Shown: positions 7,440 to 33,900 of the stretch, one piece after another
Numbering within the stretch: the stretch's first letter is position 1
Layout of the letters: each line of letters opens with the position of its first letter
DNA from: Nitrospirota bacterium
GTDB taxonomy: Bacteria; Nitrospirota; UBA9217
Direction: 5' to 3'
DNA: 64,000 nucleotides
Assembly (NCBI GenBank): GCA_963751455.1
Contig: CAVVUN010000015.1
Span: 1,568,001 to 1,632,000, forward strand
The notes under the pieces: model-generated
What the model saw: only the letters and a program-made list of their open reading frames with translations
The model's database searches: none
Told to the model about the DNA's origin: nothing
Made by a program: the position numbers and the translations under genes

Positions 7440-8100
7440 TCAAATTTTTATCAACGTGCGGGCTGCCATATCCGCGCATCTCAGCGGTTCCGGAATTCGA
7501 TAGTGGCCGATGCAGCCGGTGGTTATTCTGATCGCGCCGAATACATCAATTCGGTGCCCGGGCGATATGAACAATGGTTTGACAATCCCTGGTTTGTAAG
7601 ACAGCACCGACAACACTCCCGTGGAATTTCAAAGGAGACCAACTGCCCTTCTGGGTGCCAGGTTCGTCGAATTCGCCGATTAACCTTGTCTTTGCGCACC
7701 CGATCGTCGGAATGTCGAGCAGCACGCCGAGATGGGAAGCGCTGCCGATTCCCCTGGGGTGCGCAATCCCCTGGCCGTCTATAAGAAGTACGTCCGGCTT
7801 GTTCTTTAGTTTATCAATAGCGGCGATCAATGTGGGACCTTCACGGAAGAGGAGATACCCGGGAACATAGGGAAAACCCGACTTTGACACGGCGGTTTGC
7901 TGTTCAATCAATTGAAGTTCCGGATAACTGAAAAGGCAGGCTGCCGGGATAACGTTATCTCCGGTAAAAGCAGCATCCACACCTGCAACGGATTCCGGTT
8001 CTTTTTCCAGATGCATGATTCGCACATTGCCGACGTAAATATTTTGCAGCAGGTTCGCTTCTTTAACGGTCACGGGCCATTTGATATCCGTCTGTCTCAT
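7440..8100 (-). CDS. nfi: Endonuclease V (deoxyinosine 3'-endonuclease), one frameshift near the 3' end
   Basis: [43 protein letters not shown]. The C-terminus [12 protein letters not shown]...YRIPEPLR lies in the adjacent frame and ends at 7440. Confidence 0.9.
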
Positions 8101-8270
8101 CTTTTCAGATATAATTATACTATGTACAAACAAAAATTCAATCGGCCGAAATGGATTATCCCACCCCCGCCCGGGCCTAAAAAATACCCGCAAGCCTAAT
8201 TAAAAAGAGATTCACCTTTATAAGATATCTCTAGCGGGGGAAGGCTCTACTTAACGGAGGGAGTGATTTC

Positions 8271-8735
8271 ATGCTGCTTTATCTTGTTCAACACGGTGAA
8301 GCCGGGAAAGAAGAGGAAGATCCCAAGCGCGGTTTGAGCGATAAGGGAATACATGATGTCGAAAAAATTGCAGCCTATCTCCAGAAATTGCCTGTTCGGG
8401 TAAATGAAATATACCACAGCGCCAAGCCCAGGGCGCAGCAGACTGCTGCTATACTGGCACAGCATCTTAAACCGGACAAAGGGATAAACCAGGGAGATAA
8501 TCTTCTGCCCATGGACGATCCCGGACTTTGGGCAATGCGTATCAAGGGAATGGAAGAGGACATGATGGTTGTGGGACATCTGCCGTATATGGCGAAGCTG
8601 GCGGGTCTGCTCCTGTGCGGCGACCAGGAGAAGATCGTTATTGATTTCAAGATGGGAGGTATTGTATGTCTGAAAAGATTTGAAGACGGGAACTGGTTGC
8701 TTGAGTGGATGCTGCTGCCGGGACTGATTAAATGA
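8271..8735 (+). CDS. sixA: Phosphohistidine phosphatase SixA
   Basis: LYLVQHGEA, RGLSDKG, HSAKPRAQQTA, VGHLPY; GGAGGG RBS. Confidence 0.9.
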   Translation: MLLYLVQHGEAGKEEEDPKRGLSDKGIHDVEKIAAYLQKLPVRVNEIYHSAKPRAQQTAAILAQHLKPDKGINQGDNLLPMDDPGLWAMRIKGMEEDMMVVGHLPYMAKLAGLLLCGDQEKIVIDFKMGGIVCLKRFEDGNWLLEWMLLPGLIK

Positions 8736-9171
8736 ATCGGAAGAAGCGGATTATACAAACTTATAAACGAAAGTATTAGGATATTTTTTTAAGTTGTTCG
8801 ATTTCACCTGCGCAAACGGAACAGAACCAGACCGAGCCTTTCCCTGATATTCCCACATAAGCTTCCGGAATCATCCTGGTCCGTTCAGACTCTCGTGCGG
8901 ATATTCACCTTTCCTGATCCCATTGCGCTCGTTGAAGTAACATGCAGCTGACAGTCCGCATTCCGGAAACGATTAATTTTTCTGTTCTGCGCGCAAACTG
9001 AGTACTCATGACAGTTACCCCTGCAAGAGAATCCAAATGATGAAATGAGCTTAAGCTAAAACCACAATAAAAAGAAGCGGCCTGAGTCTGATTTTTTTGC
9101 AGGATTATAACTGAATGTCATGTAGGTGTTAGTCTTACACGCTTGAGCGGTTAAGGGGCGTAAACAGGGGC

Positions 9172-9804
9172 TCACTGAGCAAGCTTGTTTTCGAGCGCAT
9201 AGCGCGTCAGTTCCGAGTTGTTCTTCATTTCCATTTTTTCGAGAAGGCGCATGCGGTAGGTGCTTACGGTCTTTATGCTGAGCGACAGCTCCTCTCCGAT
9301 CTGTTTCACAGTTTTCCCCGAGGCAATCATGCAGAGCACCTGAAATTCCCGGTCTGAAAGCCGTTCATGAGGGTATGTTTCAAACTTAACTCCCACGCGA
9401 TCTGCGAGTTTTTCGGCAAGAAAAGCGCTCACATATTTTCCTCCGGAGTTAACTTTTCTTATCGCCGCAATTAATTCGTCAGGTGCACTGTCCTTGGTAA
9501 GATAGCCGGATGCTCCGGATTTAAGAGCGCGAACTGCGTACTGCTCCTCCGGAAACATACTCAGCATGAGGACGGCCAGCGAAGGTTTTTGTCGTTTCAA
9601 TTCCTTCAGGATCTCAAGTCCATCCTTGCCGGGCATGGAAATGTCCAGCAACAGCATATCGTAATTTTTTTTCGCAAGTTTCGCATAGATCTCGTCGCCG
9701 TTGCCCGCTTCATCGGCCACCACGATGTCCGGAGTTTCGGCAAGTATCTGTTTTATGCCTTTTCTTACGACCGCATGATCGTCCGCAATCAGTAATTTAA
9801 TCAT
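9172..9804 (-). CDS. NarL/UvrY-type response regulator (REC + LuxR HTH)
   Basis: MIKLLIADDHAVVRKG...LLDISMPG...LSDREFQVLCMIASGKTVKQIGEELSLSIKTVSTY. Has its own GGAGGA RBS 7 nt upstream of ATG 9804. Confidence 0.92.
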   Translation of the reverse strand: MIKLLIADDHAVVRKGIKQILAETPDIVVADEAGNGDEIYAKLAKKNYDMLLLDISMPGKDGLEILKELKRQKPSLAVLMLSMFPEEQYAVRALKSGASGYLTKDSAPDELIAAIRKVNSGGKYVSAFLAEKLADRVGVKFETYPHERLSDREFQVLCMIASGKTVKQIGEELSLSIKTVSTYRMRLLEKMEMKNNSELTRYALENKLAQ

Positions 9805-12800
9805 GAATAATTCCTCCGCCAGGGGAATTCGCACCGAAATCTCCGTTCCCGACATACGGGAACCGGTGATCGTCACGCTTCCGCCCCAGAAATACACCCG
9901 TTCCCTGATCCTGATCAGTCCAAGCGACTTCCGGTCACTAATCTGCTTTTCTGTAATGCCTTTGCCGTTGTCCTTCACGCAAAGGTGAAATTCGCCCTGT
10001 CCGCCTGTCAAGCCGATACTGACCTTTGTGGCCTTCGCATGCCGGGCGATATTCGTGAGCGTCTCCTGAAAGACCCGAAAAACCGCTGTCGAACGGTCGC
10101 GATCGAGAACAATCTCGTCCGGACTGAAAACAATGCTGCATTTGATGCCGGTTCTCTTTTCGAATTCTTCAGCCTGCCATTCCACTGCAGCGGCAAGGCC
10201 GAGGTGATCGAGTATGCCGGGCCTCAACTCGGTTGCGATTCTCTTTACGCTCTGCATAGTTGTTTCTATGAGCTCCGACATGGAAGCTTCTTTTTCTACC
10301 AGATCTTTGCGGTCAGAAGGGGTCTTTTTCTTCAACCACGCAAAATCCATCTTCAACGCAGTCATGGCCTGCCCAAGCTCGTCATGGATCTCCCCGCGCG
10401 ATGGAGGCCCGTTTTTTTTCGCGCGCCTCCTGAAGATAGCTGGAAAAACTTCGCAGCTGTTCGTTCAGCATCGTCAGCTCCGCTGTGCGTTCAGCCACCA
10501 GAATCTCAAGGTTCTCGTGCGATCTGCGCAATGCCTCCTCGGCTTCCTTCTGCTCGGTGACATCCTGAACCGTACCGGATTTGATGAGAGGTTTGCCCTC
10601 CGGGTCATAAAATACCTCGCCTATGGTGTGTACGGTCCGTACCGTTCCATCCGGACGGATGAGGCCGGTAATCCAATTCAAAAGGTTGTCGTTCGTAGAG
10701 CGCCGCATTTACTGCGTTTATAAAGGTTTCAGCGTCATCGGGATGCATGGCTTTCCCGACAGACTCGAACGTGGGAACATACTCCTCGGGGTTGACGCCG
10801 TATATACGGTACACTTCCTCGGACCAATAAAGCTCATTCGTAACAATGTCCCATTCCCAATTTCCGACGTGGGCCATTTTTTGCGCTTTGGACAGGCGCT
10901 CCCGACTGGTTGGAAGGGCCTGGTCAGCCTGTTTGCGCTCGGTGATGTCACGTACCACCGCAACCATGTAATCTTTGGTTCCTAAAGTCATGTACGTGAC
11001 GCTTACCTCCACCGGAAATAATGTACCGTCTCTGCGCCTGTTCATGCCTTCTATTGTCAGGTATCCCTTGTTCTTTGACTTTGGTGACATGATGAGTCCC
11101 AGAAGGTCTGATCGGGAAAACGCGCTTCAATATCCATGGTACCCAAACTCAGAAGGGTAGTTTTATCATAGCCGAGATTACTGCATGCCCGGTCATTTAC
11201 CATCAGGAAATGGCCCGTTGCAGGATCATTGACGAGTATTGCATCCTTCAGTGGTTGAGCAGGTTACGGAAAAGCAGTAAAGACTCCCTTGCCTCCTTCC
11301 TGGATGTCATGTCTCTCACCATTTCGATGACCGCACTGACTTTTCCAGACGAGTCCTTCAGCGGTGAAGCAGTGATGTCGAGGCGCAGGGTACCAACGAC
11401 AGATGGTGCGATTCTTTCTCCCCTGTGAACCGTCCCGTCCTGGAACGTCAATTCCACGGGGCAGCCTTCACATATTGCGTCCCTGTTTTCGAACGCTTTA
11501 TAACAGTTTTCGCCTGTATGGTCCCCGACAGTTTGATTCGCCAAATGGTTCTGATAGATGATCCTGAAATCGGGATCGAGGATGACCATCTGGTCACCAT
11601 TGTCGGCAATGATTGCTTCGGATTTGGATTTTTCCTCCTGTGCCGTCAGCAGGGCTGTCTTAAGCCTTTCTTCCGCCTGCTTTCGCCCGGTTATTTCCCT
11701 TATCAGCTCAATGCCGGCAACAATATTCCCCAAGGCATCCCTGAGGGGGATGCTGTTATTTCATAATGGGAGGTTCCCGTCTCAGTGGTCCTGTGCTGTT
11801 CCAGTGTATGGATTTTACCGTCCTTGAAGGACATGGTAAGATGACATCGTTCGCAAACCTGCTTTTTGTTCTGGAATGCCTTATAGCAATATTCTCCGAT
11901 ACGGTCGCCAAAAAAACCTATTGAGGCTTCGTTCTGATACAGGACTTTGTAATCCCGGTCCTGGATATTGATCCCATCGCCGATGGGCCGTGATGATCGA
12001 CTCGGTCCTGGCCTTCGCTTCTTTAGCTCTTGTAACCGCAGTCTTTAAGGATTCCTCGATTAGCTTTTTTCGCTCCGATATGTCCTTGAGAGGACCAGGA
12101 CAGCGCCCGTAATCCTGCCTTCCTCTGTGATTGGCGTGCTGATGTACTCGACAGGGAAGTTCGATCCGTCCTTTCTCCAGAAGACCTCATCAGGGGGGTG
12201 GTGAACGACGCCATCTTTCAGGGAAGCGGAAATGGGACAGTCCTCCGCGGGATAAGGCGATCCATTCAGACGGGAATGGTGCCCCCCAGTGTGCTGGTGT
12301 TTTCCGATGATCTCAGAGACGTTCCATCCCGTCAGCCGTGCCGCTGCGGGATTTGCGAAGGTTATTATGCCGTCAAGGTCGATTCCGCAGATTCCTTCGC
12401 CGGCAGTTTTCAGGATCATCTCGTTCCGGCGGTTGAGCAGCCGGATCATCTCGTCCGCACTCCGGCGTTCTGTTATGTCGCGGCTGACTCCCACCAGCCC
12501 GAGCACATTGCCCTGGATATCATGAATCGGTGCTTTGACGGTGTCGATAAATCTCTTTTTACCGTCGCTTCCGGTCATGATGTCCTCGACCTGGAGGGTC
12601 CGGCCGCTTTTCAGAAGCGCTTCATCGCTTCTTCTGCAGCTCTCCGCCAGTTCAGGAGATATCAGTTCTTCATCGCTTTTGCCGATAACCACTTCACTGC
12701 TTACGCCGGCGATTTCCTCAAACGCCTTGTTGACCAGCAGATAGCGGCCGCTGCAATCCTTAAAGAAAACCGCATCCGGCATGGCGTGAATCAAGGCCTC

Positions 12801-13646
12801 GAGTTTCGCATTGATATCCCTCATTGTTCTGTCCGCCCCCATGCGGTCTTCGATTTCGTTTACGAGACGGTTATTTATCCTCGAAAGCTCAGCTGTGCGA
12901 TCGTGCACCAGCCCTTCGAGCTGGGTCCGGGAAACCGTTGTTTTCTGCAGGTTGTCGACCATCATGTTGAATGTTGCCGTCAATTGCCCGATCTCGTCCT
13001 CCGCCTTTATCGGGATCCTGTACTCTAGGTTGCCGCTTCCCACGGTTTTCGCCGCCTTCACGAATTCGGCAAAGGGTTTTGTGATTCTTACGCTGAAAAT
13101 GATGCCTAGTACGCAGACAAACGCCGCAACACAGATGATAATCCATACGATATAGTTGATGATGCCGGCTATGCTTTTTCTGATCGGCTCGGCGGAAATC
13201 CCGATTCGAACTGTACCGAGGTTGCCTTTTAATATGGGGGCCGCAATGTCAAAGACCGACCCCATATCCATTGTGAGATGCCGGATGCTGTACGTCTGCC
13301 CGGTTTGTACGGCATTCGTTTTCTTCAGGTGTGGCGGGAATGACTCCCCGAACGTATGGGCGAGTACTTCTCCTTGCGGATTTACGACGAAGATATACTC
13401 GATGTCGCTTTCCAGAAATTTATGATCAACACAGAGCAGCCGGAGGGAGAGAACATTCTCCGTCAAAAGAGGATCTACAACCTCTTCAGCGAAGGCTCTG
13501 GCCAGAACAACCGCTCTTTTCTGGAGCTGCGTCTCGAGGATGTCTGTCAGCATGGTACGTATGAGGACAATTGCACCAAAGCCGAGAATCAATACCAGGC
13601 CCAGCGAACCGGCAAGAAATTTTGTTCTTAAACTCGATGCTTTCAT
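9801..13646 (-). CDS. Membrane sensor histidine kinase (2 TM, HAMP, about 6 PAS, HisKA_3/HATPase), multiple frameshifts
   Basis: Fragments 12060-13646, 11248-11733, 10605-11090, 10382-10708 and the N-terminal part of 9172-10365 join into TM-HAMP-PAS...-HDELGQ-ELRPGILD-FQETLTNIARHA-DNGKG. Confidence 0.82.
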
Positions 13647-14610
13647 TAATTATGATTACCCGTATCGGCTTTCATCCCTGTTGTCCATTCCCGCATCTCC
13701 CTGATTGAATCGTATGCGGTGTCGTCAGCGGAAACGAACCGTTCTATCATCATCCCTTTCAGGATTTCCCTGCCTGCTTCGTCCTTGTCGATATTGAGTA
13801 ATATTTTTTTAAGTCTTTCCTTGGTTTGAACGTCCAGTTCGCGGCGGACTACCACCGGTGGTATTCCGCAGGGAAGGGATTTCTGGATGATTTTCGTTCT
13901 GGATGTGTAGGTGGGGTCGGTTTGATTCAAATAATCCCAGATGAGGTGGTCCACTGCCGCCCCGTCCACCAATCTCTCCGCGACCGCCTTGATGGACGTG
14001 TCATGGCCGTAGGTAAAAAAATATTTCTTAAAAAAGGTATCCGGGGTCCCCCTGGCGAGCATGTAGGTGGGAACCAGCTTTCCTGTATTTGAATCCGGAT
14101 CGGAAAAAGGGTAAGGTTGTTGTTCTGGCTGGAGGTCATCGAACGTTTTCAGACTGCTGTCGCTTCGCACGATGATATATGAATAATAGACGGTTTTTCC
14201 GTATGCCTGCGGCACAACCAGGAGTTCCAGCCCGAATTCTTCGTGGCCTGCCACATACGGCCCGCTGCAGACAAAGGCAATGTCGAGATCTCCTTTTTTC
14301 AGAAGATTGTTGATCTCCTCATACTTATTTTTTGTAACGAATTGCACGGGCCTCCCCAACTGAACTCCTATATAATCGAGGAGCCTGCGGTAATAAGCAA
14401 ATCCCGCCCGAGGGGTGATCATCGCTCCGACGGCGATCCGCAGGGGATAGAGCCCTGTACAGGCTTGTTTTCCTCCTGGAAAACTTTTCTTTGTTCGAGG
14501 TTCACATTAGCGGTTTTATCCGTTCGGTCGCATCCGCCGGCGCACATGATAAAGGTTACAGTCAGTATAGAATTGACTGCTGAAGCTATTGTCCTGTTCC
14601 AGTATGACAT
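13646..14610 (-). CDS. PhnD/AioX-like periplasmic oxyanion-binding lipoprotein, frameshifted
   Basis: Signal and lipobox-like CAGGC in 14419-14610. Mature part has DIAFVCSGPY, YYSYIIV, FSDPDSNTG, FTYGHD and VDGAAVD. Confidence 0.8.
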
Positions 14611-14695
14611 TTTCCACCCCTTTGCTGTCCTGTCATGAATTGCGCCCCGCGGGAGGCTGTGTGTTGCCGCTAACCGTAATTCCAGGGTACCACCT

Positions 14696-17279
14696 TTAAT
14701 GGCTGAGGGGAATCCGGATAGTTATTGCTGTTCCCGATTCCTTTGAATTTTTGATGGCCACCTTGCCGCCCCAGGCATGAACGTACGCGTTCCCGTATCC
14801 CGATCAATCCAAGCGAATTCGGGTCAGCAATCTGCTTCTCGGTAATGCCTTTGCCGTTGTCCTTCACCCGCAGCATGAACTCGTCGGGCCCCCGTGTCAA
14901 CCCTATAGTAACCTTTGTGGCCTTCGCATGCCGGGCGATATTCGTGAGCGTCTCCTGGAAGACACGGAAAATTGCCGTCGAACGATCGCTGGTCGAGAAC
15001 GATCTCGTCAGGACGAAAAACGATATCGCACTTAAGGACCCGGTCCCTAATTCGAACTCTTCAGCCTGCCAATCCACAGCAGCGGCAAGACCCAGGTGGT
15101 CGAGCATGCCCGGCCTCAGCTCTGTAGCAATTCTCTTAACGCTCTCCATGGTGCTTTCGATCAGCTCCTTCATATATTTAGCTTCTTCCTTCGACGAGAT
15201 CCTTCCGTTCGGGAGGGGTCTTTTTCTTTAACCAGGCAAAATCCATCTTCAACGCAGTCATGGACTGCCCGAGTTCGTCTTGCGATTTCCCGCGCCATAG
15301 CGGCCCGTTCTTTTTCCCGGGCCTGTCTAAAGGTAGCTGGAAAAGTTGCGCAGCTGTTCGTTCATCATTGTAAGCTCGGCCGTCCGTTCGTTCACCTGTT
15401 TTTCCAGTTCGTCACGGGACCTGCGAATGGCCTCCTCTGCATGTTTTCTTGAAGTGATGTCCCTGACCATCTCTATAACCGCGATGACCTTTCCGGAGAC
15501 GTCGAGCAAAGGCGACGCAGTGATATCGAGATGCATGATTCCCACTTTCGTGGTTGCGATCCGTTCTCCGCGGTGGACCAGACCGTCTTTGAAAGACAGC
15601 TCGACGGGGCAGTTGTCACAGACAGTCTCCCTTCCTTCAAAAGCTTTGTAACAGCATTTACCCACGAGGTCCCCGTTCATTTTCCGGTCTACCTCGTTTT
15701 GATAGATGATTCTGAATTCGGGATCGAGAATGACGAGATTGTCGCCGATGGCGGCAATGACTGCTTCGGATTTGGCCTTTTTTTCCCCGGCGCTGATAAC
15801 GGCGGCCTTGGGAGTTTTTTCAGCCTGTATATGATCGGAGACATCCTTGAACACCACGACGGCGCCGACCACCGTGTTATTCTCGCGCATCGGCGTACTT
15901 ACATACTCGATCGGGAAAGAAGAACCGTCTTTTCTCCAGAATACTTCGTCTTTGACCTTATGGACAGTCCCGCTCTTCAATGCCTTATGGAACGCGCACT
16001 CCTCGCGCGGGTAGGGGGATCCGTCAGGCCTTGTATGGTGGAATGTCTCGTGTGACCGTTTTCCGATAAGCTCCGCAACGGACCAGCCGATCATTTCCGC
16101 CGCTGCAGGATTAATGAAGGTTATGTTCCCGTCCTGATCCAGACCGTAAATGCCTTCGCCGGCCGATTTCAGGATCATCTCGTTGCGGCGGCTGAGCAGC
16201 TCTATTATCTCCGAGGCCCTTTTTTGTTCGGTGATGTCCTGCCACATCCCGAGACAGCACACAGGCGTGCCGTTTTTGTCGCGAATTGCGGACGGGCTTA
16301 CGATGCCATGTATTATTCGGCCGTCACGGCATATATACCTCTTCTCGAATGAAAGATAATCCGCCTTGCCCGCGATCAGTTTTGAGAGCGCATCAAGCCC
16401 CTTTTTGATGTCGTCCGGATGAGAAATGTCTGAAAAAGTCTTTGACAAAAGCTCCTTTTCCTGGTATCCGAGCATTTCGCACAGTCTTTTGTTGACCTTC
16501 AGGAAACGTCCGCTAAAGTCGACGATGGAAGCGCCCACGCCTGCGTTTTCGAATGCCCGGCGAAAGCGCTCTTCGCTCTCGCGTATCTCTTCATCCTGAC
16601 GTTTTCGGGCAGTGATATCTCTGCTGACCGTGACGAGCCCGACAATGTTCCGGTTGTCGTCAAAAATGGGGGCTTTGAGCGTGTCCAAATATCTTGTTTC
16701 TCCGCCCTTGCCGGGGATCTGCTCTTCAAAATGAACGCTGGTCGTGCTTTTCAGCGCTTCCTCGTCGCTCCTCCTGCACTGTCCAGCCGCTTCCGGAGGA
16801 AACAATACATCGACGGTCTTGCCAAGAAAATCTTCCTTTTTACGGCCCGTGAGATTCTCAACGACTCGGTTGACGAGGAGATGTCTCCCTTCAACATCCT
16901 TGAAGACTACCATATCAGGCATGGATTGTATCAGGGCATGCAGTTTGGCATTCGTCTCTTCAAGCGCTGTTTCGGTTCGAATACGTTCGTCGATTTCCCG
17001 TTTATGAGCGGAAATCAAACTGACAATATAGAGGAACCCGAGCAGCAGGATGCACGATATTATCAACGCGGTAAGCTCTGCCGGCAAGTCGATCTTTACT
17101 GCATCGCCCGTGATCTCTCTGTAGAAAGAAATGGCCCGGCGGAAGGTCATCAATAGCGTCAGGAGCAACATGAAAGCTCCTATTGTCCTCTTGCCTGAGA
17201 GAGCCAGCCGCAAGGCAACGAGCGCTGAAATCATTTGAAGAAAGAGTGACAGGCTTATGATGAGCAGTGATATTTTCAT
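14696..17279 (-). CDS. Membrane multi-PAS sensor histidine kinase (3 TM, 4 PAS, HisKA_3), frameshifted
   Basis: ORF 15327-17279 (TM + PAS x4) continues into ELRPGMLDHLGL...FQETLTNIARHA...DNGKG. The corrected frame ends ...ITIRIPLSH* at 14696. Confidence 0.82.
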
Positions 17280-18852: not shown

Positions 18853-18992
18853 AATGCCTGAGTATAACATTTTTTTCGATGTATGGCTTTCTTTGCTTAA
18901 TCGAAATTACAAATTAGTAAAACCATAGTTTTATATTTCGTGTATAATTAAAACACTTTTCTACGTAACTCGGTGATCCCAAGGGAGGTAAT

Positions 18993-20483
18993 ATGGCGAA
19001 CGAATCCTTGCGGGCCTTTTCTTTGACCATCCTGTTTACCGTTATCTTTCTCTTCTCAATCCCCTTATTCGGCGCAGAACAGCAGCATATGATCTCAGCG
19101 AACGAAAAACTCTCTGTTGAAGACGTAATCCCCCTGACAATGGGAAACCTGCGCGGACACAAGATGCTTTACAATGAAGGGTGGTATGTGGTCACCTCGA
19201 GCAGCAGGGCTTTTGAATATGCCAGGGAAAAATCGATCATCTCATCGAAGACAGCGCTGCAGCGTGTCGTAAAAGACGCATCTACACATTCCGGCCAATA
19301 CAAGGAATCCGTCAAGACCGATATTCTGGATTCGGTAAAAACCGGGCAGAAGCTGGTGGCCGGAGGTTCGAAACTGAGCAATGAAATCATCGATACAACT
19401 CATACGCTTGCCCTGGCTGAACTTGATTACGCCGGAGATCGATTCAAAAAAGCAATGGAGGCATTTGTGCAGGGTAATATGTCCATTGCAAGACGGACGG
19501 AAGAAGACCGCCATGAATTGAGTGTCATCCCCGGGAATTATTATAATTCCATAAAAAGCGATTTCAGCAATATTTTCGATATCACGGAACAGAACCGAAA
19601 ACGCTTTGCGAAAAAGATTGATCCTGCCTGGGAGGCGTCATTCCAGAGGGCAAGCAGGGAGTTCCAGGCAGAGTACGATAAGTCCGGCAGGGAGCAGAAC
19701 ACGCTTATGGCCCTCGGGCCGATCCTCTACGGCTACCTCAAGTCGTTTTATTACGGGCTTGCTGCGCCGGCGTCAAAGACGATCGTGAAAACAACGGTAC
19801 GCGGGGCCACCTATACAGTATTCCTTCCGGTTACGGCCACATCCATCGTCGCGGGCAGAACAATTCAGTCTGTGGGGCTTACAGTCTATTATACAGGCAA
19901 AGCGGGTCTGAAGCTCGTATCGCCGACAGTCGAAGGCGGCCTTCTGAGCGGCCTTTCCCTTTTGTCACTTGGCTCTGTTCCGGTTACGTATGCCGCCGGA
20001 GGCACGATCGGGGCCATCAATCAGGTGGCGTTTTCTACGGTCGGGCCCGCTGCCGGTGTTGTCGAAGGGGTCGGAAGTACGGCGGCCCATTCCGCAGGAT
20101 ATGTCGGCTTTCTGGCGTATGACGCGGTGAAGGGGACTACGAAGGTCGTGATCAATCAGGCTTCTTCCGGCATCGTGCTCGGTTACAATGCTTTGACCGC
20201 GCTCCCGACGCATGCGCTGACCGGTGTGATAGATACCGCAGTCTTCCTGGCCTGGGACGGGCCGCGCCTTGTCATTGCCGCTGCCAAAGGACGCGTGAAG
20301 ATGAGCGACGAACCTGCTGCCGACGAAACCTATTCAATCGGTGATCTGCCTGTCGGGTCCGTCGTTGATTTGAAGAAGCTTGAAAAAACTGAAGGTGTGA
20401 GCCTGGAAATACTTTCAACAGACACTCAAGTCATAAAGAACGTGCTCGAACAAATTCCGGACGATGTGAGGGTGCGGGAATGA
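18993..20483 (+). CDS. Uncharacterised exported Gly/Ala-rich protein (paralogue A)
   Basis: 496-aa ORF with GGAGG RBS, N-terminal signal peptide and long G/A/V/T-rich hydrophobic segments in the C-terminal half. Confidence 0.8.
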   Translation: MANESLRAFSLTILFTVIFLFSIPLFGAEQQHMISANEKLSVEDVIPLTMGNLRGHKMLYNEGWYVVTSSSRAFEYAREKSIISSKTALQRVVKDASTHSGQYKESVKTDILDSVKTGQKLVAGGSKLSNEIIDTTHTLALAELDYAGDRFKKAMEAFVQGNMSIARRTEEDRHELSVIPGNYYNSIKSDFSNIFDITEQNRKRFAKKIDPAWEASFQRASREFQAEYDKSGREQNTLMALGPILYGYLKSFYYGLAAPASKTIVKTTVRGATYTVFLPVTATSIVAGRTIQSVGLTVYYTGKAGLKLVSPTVEGGLLSGLSLLSLGSVPVTYAAGGTIGAINQVAFSTVGPAAGVVEGVGSTAAHSAGYVGFLAYDAVKGTTKVVINQASSGIVLGYNALTALPTHALTGVIDTAVFLAWDGPRLVIAAAKGRVKMSDEPAADETYSIGDLPVGSVVDLKKLEKTEGVSLEILSTDTQVIKNVLEQIPDDVRVRE

Positions 20484-22337
20484 AAAAAATACGATCCAAT
20501 AAATCCAGCCTGCTCCTGCTGTTCGCGGTTGTAGCAACCGGGGTCAACGGGTGCGCAACAACAAACGGAACCGGCGATCCCCTCGGCAATACGAAAAAGC
20601 TGGTTACCGAGGGCCATGTATCGCTTTACAGGAACGGCGCTTTTCAGGTCCCGAACACCTCGATCAGCGTTATACCGCCCGGTCCCGGCACTATGGACCT
20701 TATTGCGGAACTTACCGGCTCACGCGCAAGGCAGTCATTTGAAATATCGATCAAGCACGCAGCCGACTCTGTCTACATCGTTACAGAAGGAACAAGGGTG
20801 ACATACGGCCTTTCAAAAAAGATCAGCAGCGGCAGCAATAAAGCCGCAGACGAGATAAGAAAGCTAAGCCGGGAGAACAGCACACTCCTTGTCTACCGTT
20901 CAACGGAAATCGGCAAAAGCATCGTCGGCAAGTCCTGGGACCTGTCCGGATATATGTTCCAGGCGCGTGAAAAAGCGGGGCACGCCGTGATCAGGGATGC
21001 GCGATCAGCGGGGAACACGGTCAGTGAAACCGGTACGAAGCAGGGGACGGAACTGGCATCGGCGTCGCTGCAGACCGCCAAAGATATTTCGATATCGAGC
21101 GCGGACCGAAGCGGAGCGGCTCTCGAGTACGGCGGGCATGCCTTCGTTAAGGGGTATGCAGCCGTTCCGTCAAAGGTGAAAAAAGAGGACGTGAGCATCG
21201 GAGAGAGCCTGTCCGAGGCGAACCTTGTCGATATCATCAAGGAACAGAACGAAACACGAAGGGAATGGTCCGGAAAGACAGTTGATCTTATGAGTGATAC
21301 GGCCAGGAATTACAGCTCCGGTGTCTCGTCGTCATTCAGCAAAGCAGGAAAGGAACTGGACGGTAATTATACAACGACCGGATTGAGCCTGGCGCTATTG
21401 AAATCCCTGCGGTGGGTGCTGCAGGGAATACTGTGGGACGCAACCATAGAACCGGCCGCAAAAATGACAGCGGCGTCACTCGGGTATATCGGCGTTAATT
21501 TCGTGGCCTTCCCGATCAATGGTCCTGGTCCAGGAAGGCGTGACTACCACGAAACTTGCCGTTGAGGTGACCTGGGATGCGGCAAAAACCGGGTATGACC
21601 TGGTTGCACCCACCGGGATTGCAGCGGTGGCGGGAGTTTATGCTGTTGTTGATTCTATCGGTTCACATGCCGTTGCGGGCGCTACTGCCGTTACGGGAAA
21701 TATTCTCGGATATGGTGAAGCGGGATTAAGCAAGACCGCCGGAGTTGTTGTGAAAGGAGGCGGATATGCCGCCGGCAAAGGCGTTCAATATATCGGGGTA
21801 CCCCTTGCCAGTGCGGGAATTGCCGTTGGCGGCGGAATTATCGGGACAGCGGTAGGGGGTGTCGGCGCTGTATCCGGCGGCGCGCTCAGGGTGACCGGCG
21901 AAGCCGGCGGTGCGGTAACCCAGGGCTTTGGTAATGTCATAGCAGGCACGACGCTGGCCGCCGGGACGGCGGCGTCAACAGCGGGCGGCGCTGCCTATGG
22001 AGTCTATGAGCTGTCCAAGGCAGTTGTCGTTCCAACGGGATATGAACTCGGCGGCGGGATTGTGCTGAGCTACGGTACGCTTAGCCATCTTGCAGCTCAT
22101 TCGATCCTGGCAGTTTCGGACTGTGCATATATGGTGCTTTCACTTGAAGGCCCACGATGGGTTCTCTACGCTGTCAAGGGAAAATCCGGAACAGGTGAGG
22201 ACCTTCCTGTGGGCGTGGTTGTTGACCTCAAGAAAATGCAGGAGACCGGAGAGGAGATAAAGTATTTGCCCGTTTCGGATGAAGAGATGATGAAAGTGAT
22301 CGATTCGGTTTACGACAATTTGCCGGAGATGAGATGA
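20480..22337 (+). CDS. Uncharacterised Gly/Ala-rich lipoprotein (paralogue B), one frameshift near 21518
   Basis: ORFs 20480-21565 and 21519-22337 join (about 618 aa). Lipobox VNGC; ATGA overlap with paralogue A; shared C-terminal motif DLPVG.VVDLKK. Confidence 0.78.
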
Positions 22338-22559: not shown

Positions 22560-22784
22560 TCAGTCTACGTGAATGATCGTGACGGGGCAGGAATCAGCCG
22601 CTTCCTTGACTTTATCCAGCAGATCCGTCGGTGCTTCGCCGCTGGCCGGGTCGCCGCCCGTTTGATACTTGGGTACTACCTCGCTCCAGTTGTCCGTTGG
22701 GTTCTGCTGAAAGAATTCCGGACAAACCGTCCAGCATGATTCACAGCTGATGCATTCTTCCCGATCAATCTTTACACTTGCCAT
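22560..22784 (-). CDS. Ferredoxin (single-cluster type)
   Basis: CISCESCWTVCP ... AADSCPV; AGGAGAGG RBS. Confidence 0.9.
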   Translation of the reverse strand: MASVKIDREECISCESCWTVCPEFFQQNPTDNWSEVVPKYQTGGDPASGEAPTDLLDKVKEAADSCPVTIIHVD

Positions 22785-24674: not shown

Positions 24675-24793
24675 CCGTTTCGTAACCGTCCCTCGCGGCA
24701 TACGAGGGTGCTGCACTTCCGCATTGACTTTCCCCAAGCGCCCATATATTGTGTTCACATCAAGGAATCCCGAACCTGTTGAAAAGGCGTACA

Positions 24794-27400
24794 ATGATCC
24801 TGATTACAATCCAAGAGACCGCACACCGTTATCCGGATAAAACTGCCGTTCAAATGAAAACCGGGGAGCGGTACCGTCGGTACACGTATCGCGAATTCTT
24901 AAAAGGCATCGCGTCAACGGCCCGCTCTCTTTCAGATGCGGGAATAAGCAAGGGAGACCGGGTCGCACTCCTGTCGGAAAACAGGCCTGAATGGATGTCC
25001 GCCTATCTCTCGGTTGTGTCGCTCGGCGGCGTCATCGTTCCTCTCGATGCCCAGCTCACCGACAAGGAAGTCGCGAACCTGCTCGCACGTTCCGAGGCAA
25101 AAGCCGTTTTTGTATCTAGAGGCACCTTCGAGAAGCTTCCGCCGAAAAGTTCACTGATGATCGTGTCGTTTGACGAGGGTTCGGGCGTCTCTTTCAGCGA
25201 TATGTTGACCGCACATCCTGATGCTTCCGTTCCGGCCACGCCTTCCGCCGGCGATCTCGCCGCGCTTCTGTATACGTCCGGGACCACCGGCGATCCGAAG
25301 GGCGTGATGCTTTCACACGGCAATCTTGCATCGGATTGTGCCAGCTGCGTAAAGCTTGATCTTGTGCATGATTATGACAATATGCTTTGTCTTCTTCCTC
25401 TGCACCATACCTATCCGGCTATGACCTGCATGCTGCTGCCGTTTTCGGTTGGCGCCACAGTAACCATCCAGAACAGCCTCAAGGGCCCGGACATACTTTC
25501 ATGCATGGCCGAAACCGGGGTCACTATTATGCTCGGGGTTCCACAGTTGTACGCCGGACTCCGGCGCGCTATCTTCGACGGGATACAGAAAAAACCCGCG
25601 CCCGTGCAGATGATCGTAAAGCTGCTGCTCAAGCTCAATGGCGCCCTCAGAAAAACGATGGGCGTGAACCTGGGCAAGTCCCTGTTCGGCAAGGTTCACG
25701 CGCTGTTCGGACCTTCGTTGAGGCTGTTCGCAAGCGGCGGGGCGCGGCTCGAACCCGAAGTATACACGGACATGACCAACCTCGGTTTCACGGTCATCGA
25801 AGGCTACGGTCTTACCGAAACCTCCCCGGTAAGCACCTTCAACCCCCTCTCGAGACAGAAGGCGGGCTCGATTGGAATACCGCTTCCTGATGTGGAAGTC
25901 AGGATCGCAAATCCCGATGAAACAGGCCAGGGCGAGATCGCTGTACGCGGCCGGAACGTGATGCTGGGATACTATAAAAAACCCGAAGAAACCGCGGAAG
26001 TGCTGAAAGACGGATGGTTCTATACCGGCGATCTCGGCTATCGGGACAGGGACGGCTATTTTTTCATTACGGGCCGGTCAAAGGAAATGATCGTGCTGTC
26101 AACCGGCAAAAAGATCTTCCCCGAGGAGCTCGAGAAGTTCTACAAGCAGATCCCGGAAATCAAAGAAATATGCCTGCTCCAGGGGGAGCGAGGTCTTGAA
26201 GCGGCAGTCGTCCCGGATTTCGATTACCTCAGAAAAATCAACCTTTCCAACTCGCGTGAGGTCATCGCTTACAAGATCGAAGACCTTTCAAAGGAACTCC
26301 CGCCCTATAAAAGAATCACCGGGCTCAAGATCTTCAAGGACGCACTGCCGGTAACGCGTCTGGGCAAACTGAGGCGCGCCCTTGTGCGCGACCTCTATCT
26401 GAAGCAGGCTGAGAGGGCCGAGAAGGCGGTTGCCGATGCAGACAAAGAGCTGCTCGATACGCCGGAGGGAAAGAAACTGGTCGCCTGCATAGAGCCGTTT
26501 ACCCCGAAGAAAAAGGTTGTGCCGGACGACAACCTCGAACTCGACCTGGGGCTCGATTCGCTCGCCCGGGTGGAACTCGTGGTCAGCATCGAGAAATCGT
26601 TCGGCATTTCCCTGGAGGAGTCTTTCGGATCGAACGTTTTTACCGTGAAGGATGCGCTGCTCAGGATCAAAGAAGCTCTGACTGCTGCGCCGATCGAAGC
26701 CGGGAACCGAGTGCGTTTGTCATGGAACGAAATTCTTGCACAGGAACCATCCGAAGACGCGAAACAGACGCTTACGTTCGAGCCGGGACGATTGTGCATC
26801 GCGGCACGCTACATGATCAAACTGATGCTCAAACTGGTTTTCAAGGTTTACGGCGGTCTGGACGTCCGCGGTCTTCAAAACCTTCCCGAAGCAGGACCGT
26901 ACATTGTTGCGCCGAATCACGTCAGTTTTGCTGATGCCCCCTCGGTAGTGGCTGCGCTTCCCTGGAAGATTGCCTCACAGACGTTCTTTCTGGGAGCGAC
27001 TGCCTATTTCGGGGGCCCGTTGACGTCCATTGTCGCGAAGGGAATCCAGGTCATACCTGTCGATATGGAGGCCAGGCTCTATAACGCGCTCCAGTTGTCC
27101 GCATATGTTCTGCGAAACAGAAGGATACTCTGCGTGTTCCCCGAAGGACAACGGTCGCGCGACGGCTCGCTCAAAGAATTCAAGAAAGGCGTCGGCATCA
27201 TAGCGAAAGAGCTTAAGGTGCCTGTTATCCCGGTGGCGATTGAGGGCACTTATCGTATGCTTGCGCCGGGAAAGGCATTTCCGAGACCGGCAAAGGTAAG
27301 GATCACGTTTGGAAAACCGATCCAGCCAGGAGATCAAGACTACGAATCGATCGTTAAAAAGCTCTCCGAGGAAGTCGCCAGGCTGGCGGGGCAGGCGTGA
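24794..27400 (+). CDS. Long-chain acyl-CoA/AMP ligase-ACP-PlsC acyltransferase fusion (Aas-like)
   Basis: YTSGTTGDPKG, GYGLTETSP, YTGDLG (adenylation domain); LGLDSL (phosphopantetheine site); NHVSFAD and FPEGQRS (lysophospholipid acyltransferase). Confidence 0.9.
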   Translation: MILITIQETAHRYPDKTAVQMKTGERYRRYTYREFLKGIASTARSLSDAGISKGDRVALLSENRPEWMSAYLSVVSLGGVIVPLDAQLTDKEVANLLARSEAKAVFVSRGTFEKLPPKSSLMIVSFDEGSGVSFSDMLTAHPDASVPATPSAGDLAALLYTSGTTGDPKGVMLSHGNLASDCASCVKLDLVHDYDNMLCLLPLHHTYPAMTCMLLPFSVGATVTIQNSLKGPDILSCMAETGVTIMLGVPQLYAGLRRAIFDGIQKKPAPVQMIVKLLLKLNGALRKTMGVNLGKSLFGKVHALFGPSLRLFASGGARLEPEVYTDMTNLGFTVIEGYGLTETSPVSTFNPLSRQKAGSIGIPLPDVEVRIANPDETGQGEIAVRGRNVMLGYYKKPEETAEVLKDGWFYTGDLGYRDRDGYFFITGRSKEMIVLSTGKKIFPEELEKFYKQIPEIKEICLLQGERGLEAAVVPDFDYLRKINLSNSREVIAYKIEDLSKELPPYKRITGLKIFKDALPVTRLGKLRRALVRDLYLKQAERAEKAVADADKELLDTPEGKKLVACIEPFTPKKKVVPDDNLELDLGLDSLARVELVVSIEKSFGISLEESFGSNVFTVKDALLRIKEALTAAPIEAGNRVRLSWNEILAQEPSEDAKQTLTFEPGRLCIAARYMIKLMLKLVFKVYGGLDVRGLQNLPEAGPYIVAPNHVSFADAPSVVAALPWKIASQTFFLGATAYFGGPLTSIVAKGIQVIPVDMEARLYNALQLSAYVLRNRRILCVFPEGQRSRDGSLKEFKKGVGIIAKELKVPVIPVAIEGTYRMLAPGKAFPRPAKVRITFGKPIQPGDQDYESIVKKLSEEVARLAGQA

Positions 27401-27523
27401 AGGCCGCGAGTGCTGCATCTGCGATAAAGCTTTTAAGATTTCGAAACCGGATCGGGTTTCCTTCGATCTGTGTAATCTGTGGATAGCTGCGGTTACTTTC
27501 ATTTCAGAAATAGGGTGAAGCTT

Positions 27524-28462
27524 ATGAAGCATGGTATACGTTTGATGGTGCTGTTCCTTGTTCTTTCCTGTTCATCGTGTGCGACGACACCGGACCCTTC
27601 TGCAATAGAGACTTCGGAGCCGCCGGCAACCGGGATTTTGAAACCGAAAGTAGCGCTGGTTCTGGGAGGCGGCGCTGCGCGGGGTTTTGCACATGTCGGT
27701 GTGATCCGTGCACTGGAGCAGGAAAAGATCCCGATCGACCTGATTGTCGGTACCAGCGTAGGCAGCCTGATCGGCGCCATTTACGCGCATGACCTGAACA
27801 GCTTTGAGCTGGAGTGGACGGCATTTGCCCTCGAAAGAGAACACCTCTTCGACTTCGCCATGTTCGCCGCGCTTACCAGTATGGGGCCGGTCAAGGGGGA
27901 CAAACTGGAGGAGTTCGTGCGTTCAAAAGTGCCTGTCGAGAACATAGAAAACCTCAAACTCCCTTTTGCCGCCGTAGCAACCGATCTGAACCGCGGCACA
28001 CGTGTTGTGCTTGAACGCGGATCGGTGGCAAAAGCAGTGCGTGCAAGCAGCGCCATCCCGGGGGTGTTCAATCCGGTCGAGCATCAGGGCAGGCTGCTCG
28101 TGGACGGCGGCGTGGTGGACAATATCCCCATAGCCGTGGCCAGGGAGAAGGGCGCCGATATCGTGATTGCCGTAGATATCAGCGAGAACGTGGTCAACTT
28201 TAACGTTACAACCCTGGTTGATGTCGTGCTCCAGTCCGTGAACATCATGTTCAGCGAGAATGTGGGCTACAAAAAAAAGGATGCGGATGTGCTGATCATG
28301 CCGGCCGTCGGGAATGTGGCCATGCTGGATTTCACCCAGAAGAAGAGGTGCATGCAGGCGGGGATCGAGGCTGCGCAGAGGGCCATGCCTGAGATCAAAA
28401 GGAAGATCGACGAATGGACGAAAAACGCGAATTCGAAGCACGACGTCCGATCACCCAAATAA
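27524..28462 (+). CDS. Patatin-like phospholipase lipoprotein
   Basis: GGGAARG, GTSVG nucleophile motif, DGG; lipoprotein-like signal. Confidence 0.9.
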   Translation: MKHGIRLMVLFLVLSCSSCATTPDPSAIETSEPPATGILKPKVALVLGGGAARGFAHVGVIRALEQEKIPIDLIVGTSVGSLIGAIYAHDLNSFELEWTAFALEREHLFDFAMFAALTSMGPVKGDKLEEFVRSKVPVENIENLKLPFAAVATDLNRGTRVVLERGSVAKAVRASSAIPGVFNPVEHQGRLLVDGGVVDNIPIAVAREKGADIVIAVDISENVVNFNVTTLVDVVLQSVNIMFSENVGYKKKDADVLIMPAVGNVAMLDFTQKKRCMQAGIEAAQRAMPEIKRKIDEWTKNANSKHDVRSPK

Positions 28463-31051: not shown

Positions 31052-33900
31052 GCATCAGCAGGAAGTTCGCGCTCTGGATCGTGTCAGTGCTTCTGGTTGC
31101 TGCCGCGGTGAGCATTTACCTTTTCTACGTGGTTGAAATGCGGGCTGAGGCGAAGAAACTGGAATTATTCGGAAAATTGTCCGGCCGGGTCATCGAGGAA
31201 AGCCTGATGACGTTCATGCTGAACCGGGACAATGCAGGGCTCAATCGAAAACTGGACGAAGTTAAAGCGGCCAGCGATACCGTCAGCCGGATATTATTGC
31301 TCGACACGTCGGGTGAGGTCAGGGCCTCTTCAGAGAAGGGGCTGATCGGGAAGAAATTTTCAACCAGGGATCCCGGGTGCCGGGAGTGCCATGAAAAAGG
31401 GCACAAGGGCATTCTCATGAACGGCAACAGCTCCTATCGCTGGGCTGCACCGGTCCTCAATAAGCCCGTGTGTCACGGCTGCCATGATTCCCGGACCCTA
31501 AACAACGGCCTGCTCATCATCGATTTTTCCGTCAGCGAATTTGTCGTACCACGTCAGGCAGGAACTCTTCGCCGGTTCTGCCTTCATCGTCACGGCCCTG
31601 TTCATTATCGGCTGGATGATGGTTTTTTTATCGGAGACACTCGTCAGCCGCAGGTTGAACGGCATGGTAGTCAGAATGAAGGACTTCCAGGACGGTGATA
31701 TTGCGGCACGGGCGCCGGTGGAAGGAAACGACGAGATTACGAGACTCGAAACCGGCTTCAACGAGCTTGCGCAGGCTGTCACGACACGGGAGTGGGAAAA
31801 AAACCGGCTGGTTGAAGAGGTCAACGCAACAAACGAACAGCTGCAGCGCGAAATTGCCGAGAGGGAGCGCTGGGAGCGCACGCTGCACGAGCAACTCCAG
31901 TTTCTCCAGCGCATGATCGATACTATCCCCATGCCAATTTTTTACAAGGACCTTGCCGGGGCCTACCTGGGCTGCAATAAGGCGTTCGAGCTTTTTCTCG
32001 GCATATCAAAAGAGAAGCTTGTCGGGAAGACCGTTCTCGACATCACGCCCAAAGAGTTTGGCAGATAAATATCATGACATGGACAGGGACCTCATCGAAC
32101 ACCCGGGTGTTCAAATCTACGAATATTCAGTCAAGCACGCTGACGGCTCTTTCCGCGACGTCATCTTCAACAAGGCGACATTTGCCGATGTCGAGGGAAA
32201 GGTGGGCGGGCTGATCGGCGCAATGCATGATATCACGGAACGGAAAAAGATCGAAGCGGCTTCCAGGAGGGCCGAACTGGTTATTAAGCGGAACTACGAC
32301 ACCCAGACCGCCATCAACTGGATCCTGCACATCTCCCTCGAAAATCTTACTCTTGACGGCATCTTGAAGCAGGCGCTCGATATCATCCTCTCGATTCCCT
32401 GGTTGTCGATAGAATCGAAGGGTGCAATCTTCCTTGTTGAGGATTACCCGGAAATACTGGTCATGAAAACACAGAGGGGGCTCTCGGAACATCTGCATGA
32501 CCAATGCAAAATCGTCCCGTTCGGCAAGTGTCTCTGCGGAAGGGCAGCCGCCCGGGGAGACGTTCAGTTTGCGGACCGCCTTGACGATCGTCACGAAGTC
32601 AGCTACGACGGGGCTATAGGGCACGGTCATTACTGCGATCCCGATCATGGATGCGCAGCGCGTGCTCGGTGTCATCAATATGTATTTAAAGGAAGGACAC
32701 CGGCGGGACGATAAGGAAATCGAGTTTCTGAACGCAATGGCGAGCGCTTTGGCCGGGGTCATCCAGCGGAAACGGACCGAGGAGGAGCGTGAAAAGCTGA
32801 TCATAGAGCTTCAGACCGTTCTGAACATCGTATCCCACTCCCAGCAGGAATGGCGGAACACCTTCGACAGCATCACGGACATGATCGCCATCCTGGACAA
32901 GGAATTCACCATAGTGAAAGCGAACAAAGCCTTCGCGGCGTATTTCGGCCTGCAGCCGCAGGAGGTCATCAAAAGAAAGTGTTATGAGCTTATGCACGAG
33001 GGCAGTTCCCCAATCCCGAATTGTCCTCACCACACAACGTTAACCCAAAAAATAGCGGCCGCAGAGGAGTTTCTCGACAAAAGGACCAACAGACTGTTCC
33101 GCGTTTTTACGTTTCCCTACCATTCCCCGGAAGGCGAGATCATCGGGTCTATTCACATCTCCCGCGACATAACCGAAGATAAGGAAAAGGAAACCCGCCT
33201 TATCATGAGCGAACGGCTTGCGGCGCTTGGCCAAATGGCCTCAGGCATCGCCCATGAGATCAACAATCCTCTTGCCTCTATTGCCGGATGCTCGGAAGGG
33301 CTCATGACAAGGGCCAGAAAGGGGAACTGGGACGCTAAACTGTTTGAATCCTACCTCGGCATTATCCAGGAAGAGGTCTTCAGATGCAAAAGCATCACTA
33401 CTGCAATATTGTCCTTTGTCAGGAAAAGCAGCTATGAAAAAAAAGAAGTTTCGCTGAATGGACTTCTCGACAAGACGCTCGAGATCATCGGATTTCAGGG
33501 GAGGCTCAAAGACATAGAGATACAACGGCGCTACCAGCCCGAAGGGCCTGTTATTCGAGGCAATGAAGGCGAACTCAGGCAGGTTTTCCTTGCAGTCATA
33601 ACCAATGCGCTGGACGCAATGTACGACAAGGGCTGCCTTGTTCTTGAAACCGCCGCACAAGAGGAGTCATCCGTAATTCGCATCAGCGACACAGGTTCCG
33701 GAATATCACCGGAGAACATGCTCAAAATTTTCGATCCATTCTATACGACCAAGGCAGAGAGGGGCGGGACCGGTCTTGGCCTCTCCATTGCGCGCAAGAT
33801 AGTTGCGAACCACAACGGCACCATCCAGGCAGTTTCCGACCCAGGGCAAGGCACTACCATAACCATAACCCTTCCATCCTCATTCACTCCTGAATTATAG
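31048..33900 (+). CDS. Sensor histidine kinase with di-haem-c periplasmic domain, HAMP, PAS, GAF, PAS, HisKA; three frameshifts
   Basis: Fragments 31048-31698 (CRECH, CHGCH), 31541-32068, 31953-32714 and 32647-33900 (AHEINNPL, DTGSG, FDPFYTTK, GTGLGL). Confidence 0.85.

Follow-up and report, generated by a model that had tools for sequence, protein, structure and literature searches.

What kind of system is encoded by two overlapping genes, A and B, at positions 18993-22337 of a 64,000-nucleotide stretch of a Nitrospirota genome (contig CAVVUN010000015.1; the whole stretch is called the window below)? An earlier note on this DNA had proposed an undescribed, paired system of two exported paralogues. 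Our results agree with this proposal: no family match was found, and A was followed by B in 106 of 111 loci. We conclude that the two genes are a real and widespread envelope system that has gone undescribed; its distinctive architecture is well supported, and its function is putative. The module is unnamed and present in at least six bacterial groups, and its architecture was unmatched in the libraries searched. This architecture is a predicted exported antiparallel hairpin of 25-55 nm, both arms of which gain and lose 11-residue units in step. Architecture is the strong point of this account and function its weak point.

Gene A (18993..20483, forward strand, like all features below unless stated) is an intact open reading frame (ORF) of 496 amino acids (aa), as had been stated, for an exported protein of near-constant length that is predicted to form a helical hairpin. 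Its stop codon and the start codon of gene B share the sequence ATGA at 20480-20483, which agrees with the coupling claimed, and all the motifs quoted earlier were found in the sequence. Gene B (20480..22337), a lipoprotein paralogue, had been described as a single ORF of about 618 aa. In the window it consists instead of frames of 361 aa (20480-21565) and 272 aa (21519-22337). Because the window copy is split, B was characterised through intact homologues; its numbering follows homologue P0121 from locus L015, with an offset of 2.

The C-termini of A and B are 33% identical across 105 aa (BLASTP, E 9e-13). A profile-profile comparison aligned 347 columns (99.6%, E 9e-25) and covered A 123-494, so that the homology, previously placed at both ends, extends along the chain. 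The C-terminal part of the former claim stands, while the N-terminal similarity alone is weak in pairwise comparison (E 0.94). The contrast between a polar N-half and an uncharged C-half also holds among homologues (26-30% versus 8% D, E, K or R). The glycine-zipper reading is not supported. GxxxG/AxxxG motifs were no more frequent than in shuffled sequences (5 versus 3.3 in A, p 0.22; 9 versus 9.0 in the C-part of B, p 0.58), GxxxGxxxG-type counts equalled those of shuffles, no Gly-zipper family in Pfam matched A or B, and no mature window scored as an ordinary transmembrane helix. On a scale calibrated on proteins of the window, the best mature windows scored 2.7-3.5; all but 2 of 15 helix-like windows from three membrane proteins of the window scored -2.6 to 2.5. 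The lack of a normal transmembrane helix is consistent with Sec export. The actual pattern of the chains is an 11-residue repeat, with a hydrophobicity period of 3.62-3.74 in most windows.

A starts with a Sec-type signal peptide (about residues 1-27, 18993..19073; hydrophobic core at residues 8-26, with a putative cleavage site), and B carries a lipobox, VNG-C, with the cysteine at residue 25 (20543..20554). With a loose pattern, a lipobox was scored in 119 of the 132 scorable B homologues (137 aligned) but also in 27 of the 106 scorable A homologues (130 aligned). The lipid anchor of B is thus upheld, but the division into one secreted and one anchored protein is not general, since about a quarter of the A homologues are predicted to be lipoproteins as well. 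In Escherichia coli, the residue at position +2 governs the sorting of lipoproteins to the outer membrane. At this position Asp was found in none of the 219 matched B proteins (of 235).

Coevolution, matched insertions and deletions (mostly in 11-residue steps) and structure models make it very probable that A and B each fold into a single giant, untwisted and antiparallel 11/3 hairpin, with a small head common to both. In A, a conserved segment with the motif GHxxLYxEGW (residues 47-67, 19131..19193) forms a helix (47-61) and a head strand (62-67) in the AlphaFold2 (AF2) model and covaries with residues 401-407. It is followed by an amphipathic N-arm with a period of about 3.65 (residues 70-232, 19200..19688), the hairpin turn (231-241, 19683..19715; AF2 helices 211-231 and 237-270), a nearly uncharged C-arm rich in G, A, V and T and antiparallel to the N-arm (240-405, 19710..20207; 12 charged residues of 166), and a C-terminal alpha/beta head with a WDGPRL hairpin and the motif LPVGxVVDL (20220..20468; predicted local distance difference test (pLDDT) 81-94). 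The head of B is homologous to it (22104..22322; LSLEGPRW and LPxGxVVDL). The amphipathic N-arm of B has about 228 residues (20690..21373), and homologues carry 11-residue insertions in its distal part. Its uncharged Gly/Ala C-arm (21389..22097) crosses the frameshift, and in long homologues is built of the unit AG(E/G)AVKGG(G/S)(Y/I)V.

The length variation of B follows the hairpin. Homologues range from 540 to 908 aa, and their insertions and deletions fall only in N-arm 155-228 and C-arm 379-443, jointly in both. The paired N-arm/C-arm insertions measured 22/25, 33/33, 31/33, 42/44, 66/66, 104/110 and 135/143 residues, and the lengths of the two arms were correlated with r 0.987 (222 of 235 sequences). 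Among 97 length variants, 94 were matched within 8 aa, and 60 of the 97 changed the C-arm by a multiple of 11, give or take one residue. The distal tails are of near-constant length in both families, and the segment of A that matches the variable region of B stayed constant to within 5 aa in all 240 sequences. One A-type protein, P0309 (544 aa), departs from the otherwise fixed length of its family through a charged insertion in its distal N-arm.

Mean-field direct coupling analysis (DCA; 240 A and 197 B sequences, noisy, with an effective depth of 113-141) gave a single continuous antidiagonal for each family, at i+j near 474 (A) and near 608 (B), without drift. These place the turns at about residues 236 and 303. 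The antidiagonals held 33 pairs versus 12.4 expected in A and 51 versus 19.4 in B, and band enrichment was 1.9 and 2.0 versus 0.5-1.5 in 22 slid bands each. The enrichment was significant for the central segments (p 2e-5 and 1e-9), with a weaker signal toward the ends (p 0.0007-0.08). The AF2 model of B showed long helices and a hairpin across 145-450 (pLDDT 58, predicted template modelling score (pTM) 0.31); that of A had a confident head and an unresolved C-arm (pLDDT 70, pTM 0.65). The models and DCA share overlapping alignments and are not independent. That the arms run antiparallel over about 165 residues in A and 230 in B is well supported. If straight, the hairpins would measure about 25 and 35 nm, with a maximum of about 55 nm among the long B proteins.

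The faces of the arms differ in composition. Positions at the contact centre of the C-arm are 96% G, A or S, and the face opposite to the contact is 0% charged. On an 11-mer wheel, the outer face of the N-arm is 40-51% charged, with small and apolar residues toward the partner arm. Aromatic amphipathic helices adjoin the turns of both proteins.

Do A and B belong together? The note had asked whether they always co-occur. A was directly followed by B in 106 of the 111 loci (98 scored automatically and 8 with over-long start calls), a set that omits the window's own locus and includes duplicates and close kin. The other five ended at A, with at most 117 nucleotides after it. Where the contig allowed a judgement, the two genes were never apart or reordered, and three apparent lone copies (in genomes G024, G188 and G233) were cuts at contig edges. 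Pairwise identities within A and within B covaried (r 0.92, 105 pairs). It is probable that the two proteins co-assemble. From 105 pairs (effective 74), inter-chain mutual information yielded no usable signal, a sample too weak to count against binding. An apparent inter-chain band near a sum of 300 was broad and mostly disappeared once column rates were controlled.

Relatives numbered 410 among 7996 scored candidates for A and 268 among 7995 for B. Those among the matches listed were unnamed and had no Pfam domain, except for one fusion of B to a phosphatase. This protein, P0156 (1037 aa), carries a tyrosine-phosphatase/DUF442-like domain and might be a read-through artefact. A profile search of 1.84 billion representatives gave 146 matches, assessed by their lengths and scores and by 16 sampled sequences; those examined were A- or B-type. 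In the phylum of the window, 34 of 401 genomes had a match (two of them weak), and within its family the count was 26 of 63. A sample of a gammaproteobacterial class yielded 6 of 400 genomes (4 strong; the centre genome is among them), and the phylum of a Geobacter locus 5 of 301. Named members came from Nitrospirota, Geobacteraceae, Deltaproteobacteria, Polyangia/Myxococcota, Bacteriovoracia, Campylobacterales and Leptospira. The named Leptospira matches were from species that we take to be saprophytic, with the exception of one fragment. Two Leptospira B homologues, P0414 and P0423, are named 'YlbF family regulator' and 'DUF262 domain-containing protein' and look misannotated. No match was confirmed on a viral contig (0 of 81 candidate viral stretches).

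How might the hairpins be assembled? A conserved motif in the middle of the N-arm, here called the latch, lies 90 residues along the arm in A (residues 158-167, 19464..19493) and 155 in B (FVKGY, 21143..21169). That it binds the head domain is moderately supported. In both families its contact with the last head helix was among the top DCA pairs (165-485, z 7.9, and 165-487, z 6.7, in A; 230-614, z 9.7, in B), and the positions are equivalent in the profile alignment. In a confident region of the A model, residues 159-167 form a strand that, judged from secondary structure, lies beside the head strands. In a straight hairpin the latch would be 14 nm (A) or 23 nm (B) away from its own head, so that either the contact is between subunits or the chain folds back. 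We prefer the former, since the indels of B occur only past the first 80 arm residues, a length that the 70-residue tail of a neighbour would cover, and since a one-sided insertion fits poorly with a fold-back latch. The stretch of C-arm between head and latch was of low confidence in both models (328-388 in A, 447-526 in B), which is what a conflict between intra- and intermolecular contacts would produce.

We tentatively favour a lipid-anchored belt or ring on a membrane, with the uncharged face turned to lipid in analogy to apolipoproteins, although its probability is somewhat below even. Export signals would carry both proteins out, with the lipid of B next to its head; A would be soluble, or lipidated as predicted for about a quarter of its homologues. 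The charged N-arm is predicted to cover one face of the C-arm, whose opposite face has no charged residues. Subunits would polymerise head to mid-arm, the tail of about 70 residues of each lapping over the initial 70-80 residues of its neighbour in the manner of shingles, because a straight hairpin could not reach its own head. Such shingling would account for the fixed first 80 arm residues of B and for both fixed tails, with the free distal part of B growing by 11-mers. It would also account for the constant length of A, which would have little free length. The resulting filament or ring, two to four helices wide, would lie on the membrane. The lipid of B, 12-20 residues from the head, would pin it there, in the outer membrane if the +2 rule applies. 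Like an apolipoprotein belt, the greasy ribbon might then coat or curve a bilayer or cap its edge, with no energy source. In a more specific form, which we regard as doubtful, the two giant hendecad hairpins would be shingled into rings of tunable size that hold the edge of a membrane; these rings would be tens of nanometres wide and as tall as about one bilayer. Such a ring would serve bacteria as a nanodisc belt or would line a giant in-plane pore as its rim, and its diameter would be set by the number of 11-mers in B. If true, a lipid belt or in-plane pore rim would give bacteria a new means of shaping or perforating membranes and would be a natural scaffold of tunable size.

Several observations weigh against this belt. 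Lipid binding is a prediction from sequences and models, and a free face rich in Gly and Ala suits helix-helix packing as much as lipid contact. The concentration of face angles is low (R 0.34-0.43 in the best window and 0.07-0.36 elsewhere), as is the confidence of the B model (pLDDT 58, pTM 0.31). The latch signal is carried by few pairs, and that of B (230-614) falls to z 4.7 in a rerun with a reduced alphabet. Latch covariation within each family implies contact of like with like, for which the partner gene is not needed per se. A has a weak fold-back signal (N-N, sum 222; 14 versus 6.1, nominal p 0.004; in B, 20 versus 14, p 0.08), and its model is kinked at 109-115; signal and kink allow an intramolecular latch.

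The fold-back signal would suit a different device, a bipartite weapon against membranes, which we consider rather unlikely. The uncharged arm would be stored beneath the charged arm, latched to the head, and would spring open on a target membrane, for example that of a grazing protist met from the cell surface or via vesicles, into a large A-B pore. An adjacent pair of paralogues that needs no other gene, amphipathic helices that shield hydrophobic ones with marginally hydrophobic windows, the patchy spread (34/401, 6/400 with 4 strong, and 5/301 genomes) and carriage on a plasmid all speak for it, and two-component alpha pore formers work as A-B pairs (PMC6162564, excerpt). However, similarity to the ClyA family was absent from Pfam, the PDB and the 1.84 billion representatives, the predicted topology is one long hairpin rather than a five-helix bundle, and B and about a quarter of the A proteins are predicted to be lipid-anchored. 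Divergence is slow and poor in indels, and the named Leptospira matches are, save one fragment, from presumably saprophytic species. The independence of the two proteins, each self-assembling as co-expressed paralogues with complementary roles, would agree with a latch-head covariation that lies within each family. It is nevertheless highly improbable, as the genes are never apart or reordered where the contig allows and each locus has exactly one A and one B across phyla.

The two-layer pattern of faces and the aromatic helices beside both turns could be explained by an upright tube, with an inner ring of C-arms around a lumen lined with Gly and Ala and an outer coat of N-arms, through which lipids and further hydrophobic molecules would diffuse across the periplasm. 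It would hang from one membrane by the lipid of B and touch the other with its aromatic tips. Tubes that contain hendecads do span envelopes, such as the 170 Å phiX174 H (PMC7354561, excerpt). This is an unlikely arrangement for A and B. The B arm varies by 5-21 nm among relatives whereas A is fixed, which misfits a single periplasm or a side-by-side A:B tube; an in-register arrangement leaves the latch-head contact unexplained; and neither an inner-membrane partner nor an energiser was among the scanned neighbours. The invariant Gly stripes speak for tightly packed helices, and length is tuned by repeat units in rulers and stalks, so that a purely structural tether, spacer or surface filament with a protein-protein core and no lipid contact also deserves mention. 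We judge it improbable, given a patchy distribution that looks non-essential (26 of 63 genomes in the window's family) and the lack of any peptidoglycan-binding or adhesin domain in the Pfam and NCBIfam scans.

An intact, transcribed copy of the pair on plasmid p74 of Leptospira biflexa Patoc 1, a laboratory strain that is not pathogenic, makes the module directly testable. The genes are LEPBI_RS18690 (A) and LEPBI_RS18685 (B), which by gene order correspond to LEPBI_p0055 and LEPBI_p0054. The latter tags are tabulated in supplement 7 of PMC4863578, with values that we read as log counts per million of 7.0 and 7.5 and log fold changes of 0.4-0.7. Because about 68% of p74 genes were up in late biofilm (PMC4863578, excerpt), the fold changes are evidence of expression only.

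The split of B in the window is probably a sequencing or assembly error. Its span of 1858 nucleotides is one base off a multiple of three, with the frameshift at about 21512..21520 and the frame junction near 21515-21520. The error is likely because B was one complete ORF in 20 of the 22 genome loci fetched with A (of the others, one leaves the contig within B and one stops within A) and because frame junctions occur at about a dozen further sites in the window. Among the sequencing runs listed, two matched at a share of 0.06, neither of them listed as RNA. The frame junctions include those at 7600-14800, 31500-32600, 39300 and 58400, within signalling and other genes; for example, PAS/histidine-kinase genes are split and a phosphonate-binding-like ORF is truncated. 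The assembly looks indel-prone here, and further 'split genes' in the window should be distrusted. A was likewise fragmented in the few-contig assemblies G042, G219, G227 and G242, which fits indel errors of such assemblies. In one contig (G272:C8, loci L120 and L121), B was broken, by rearrangement or misassembly, into two pieces separated by about 280 kb; the first remained behind A, and the second adjoined glycosyltransferase-like ORFs near the contig end.

A Shine-Dalgarno-like sequence, AAGGGAGG, lies ahead of gene A (18981..18988); a scan for promoters and terminators gave no signal better than chance. Directly downstream of B, on the opposite strand, is a 74-aa ORF with CxxCxxC...C (22560-22784), which we take to be ferredoxin-like. 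No conserved third gene was found: neighbours changed between loci, with no recurrent partner beyond close kin (Pfam on 63 of 107 flanking ORFs, NCBIfam on 115 of 232). The scanned flanking ORFs were housekeeping and unrelated genes, and included no conserved transporter, secretion or immunity neighbour. Defence genes were scattered (AIPR at locus L010, AbiEii at L013, a toxin-antitoxin pair on p74). The divergent GDSL/ICMT genes, earlier taken as a hint of a lipid role, are incidental neighbours that vary from locus to locus, and we rejected a lipid role inferred from them. A local lipid-metabolism cluster in the window (24749-28462) was not seen to recur beside the pair in other loci; it encodes an 883-aa fusion (AMP-binding/PP-binding/acyltransferase) and, after it, a patatin-like protein whose start resembles that of a lipoprotein. 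On both Leptospira plasmids viewed, genes for periplasmic glucan synthesis (L118:2467-6453 and L119:8555-10138, reverse strand) lie upstream of and divergent from A; none were seen beside A outside Leptospira.

Is the pair related to any known system? Searches of Pfam (E up to 1), NCBIfam and PDB sequences and profiles gave no significant match for A or B. Foldseek against the PDB and viral structures found nothing significant except one designed bundle at E 1e-4, VIA-align returned only generic hairpins (best Z 7.5 for A and 9.7 for B), and the Atlas held only two unnamed clusters (Spirochaetota and Nitrospirota), below 0.9. These fold searches used whole-chain models, so that the head fold was barely probed. 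Anti-phage or phage matches were absent from PADLOC and PHROG for seven proteins, the best (E 0.021 and 0.008) being partial and in one of the seven. In the open-access literature, which included few supplements, the locus tags were undiscussed in main texts, and the family was undescribed in papers on the architecture and on L. biflexa.

In the favoured reading as a lipid belt, A and B would be scaffolds like apolipoproteins or ESCRT proteins, and in the pore-forming alternative they would resemble XaxAB; in sequence tests they matched none of these families. Apolipoprotein, perilipin and synuclein helices consist of 11-mer repeats, and apolipoproteins form belts. With the exchangeable apolipoproteins, perilipin and synuclein, A and B share 11/3 repeats rich in small residues (here with periods of 3.62-3.74 and 11-mer expansions), a length set by repeat number and a continuous apolar face. 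They differ in being bacterial, exported and lipid-anchored, with a covalent antiparallel hairpin, matched indels, a conserved alpha/beta head and two obligate paralogues. There is no significant similarity: no apolipoprotein family in Pfam matched, the best being apolipophorin-III at E 0.077 (range 0.077-4.5). PspA, Vipp1 and ESCRT-III are also helical hairpins, and A and B would polymerise like them by shingled membrane contacts. Their fold matches (Z 6.7-8.0) tied with unrelated hairpins, no PspA_IM30 or Snf7 profile of Pfam or NCBIfam matched, and the A/B hairpin is 3-4 times longer, predicted to be periplasmic or at the surface, and lipid-anchored.

The ClyA-family systems XaxAB, YaxAB and Hbl/Nhe are likewise adjacent paralogous helical proteins with shielded hydrophobic helices and two-gene sufficiency. 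Their core is a five-helix bundle (PMC6162564, excerpt), which is not predicted for A and B. The uncharged segment of A and B has 165-230 aa instead of being a short hairpin, they carry Sec and lipoprotein signals and vary in length, no sequence match was found, and fold matches to ClyA and SmhA were weak (E 0.02-0.12, TM-score at most 0.19, on low-confidence models). Mce needles are built of paralogues, one of which is a lipoprotein. They, PqiB and phiX174 H (PMC7354561, excerpt) resemble A and B in their long helices, a possible apolar lumen and envelope-scale length. A and B differ in having a two-layer antiparallel design, no MCE domain in Pfam or NCBIfam, no ABC or membrane partner and no conserved inner-membrane partner gene. 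Among long hairpins, the closest in form is the cytoplasmic domain of a methyl-accepting chemoreceptor (2ch7), along which the B model aligned over 145-450 (Z 9.7, root-mean-square deviation 47.6, 297 aligned residues, 4% identity), a generic match. Chemoreceptors also form length classes by symmetric indels in both arms. They are cytoplasmic and step by 7 residues; A and B are exported, step by 11, and have one uncharged arm.

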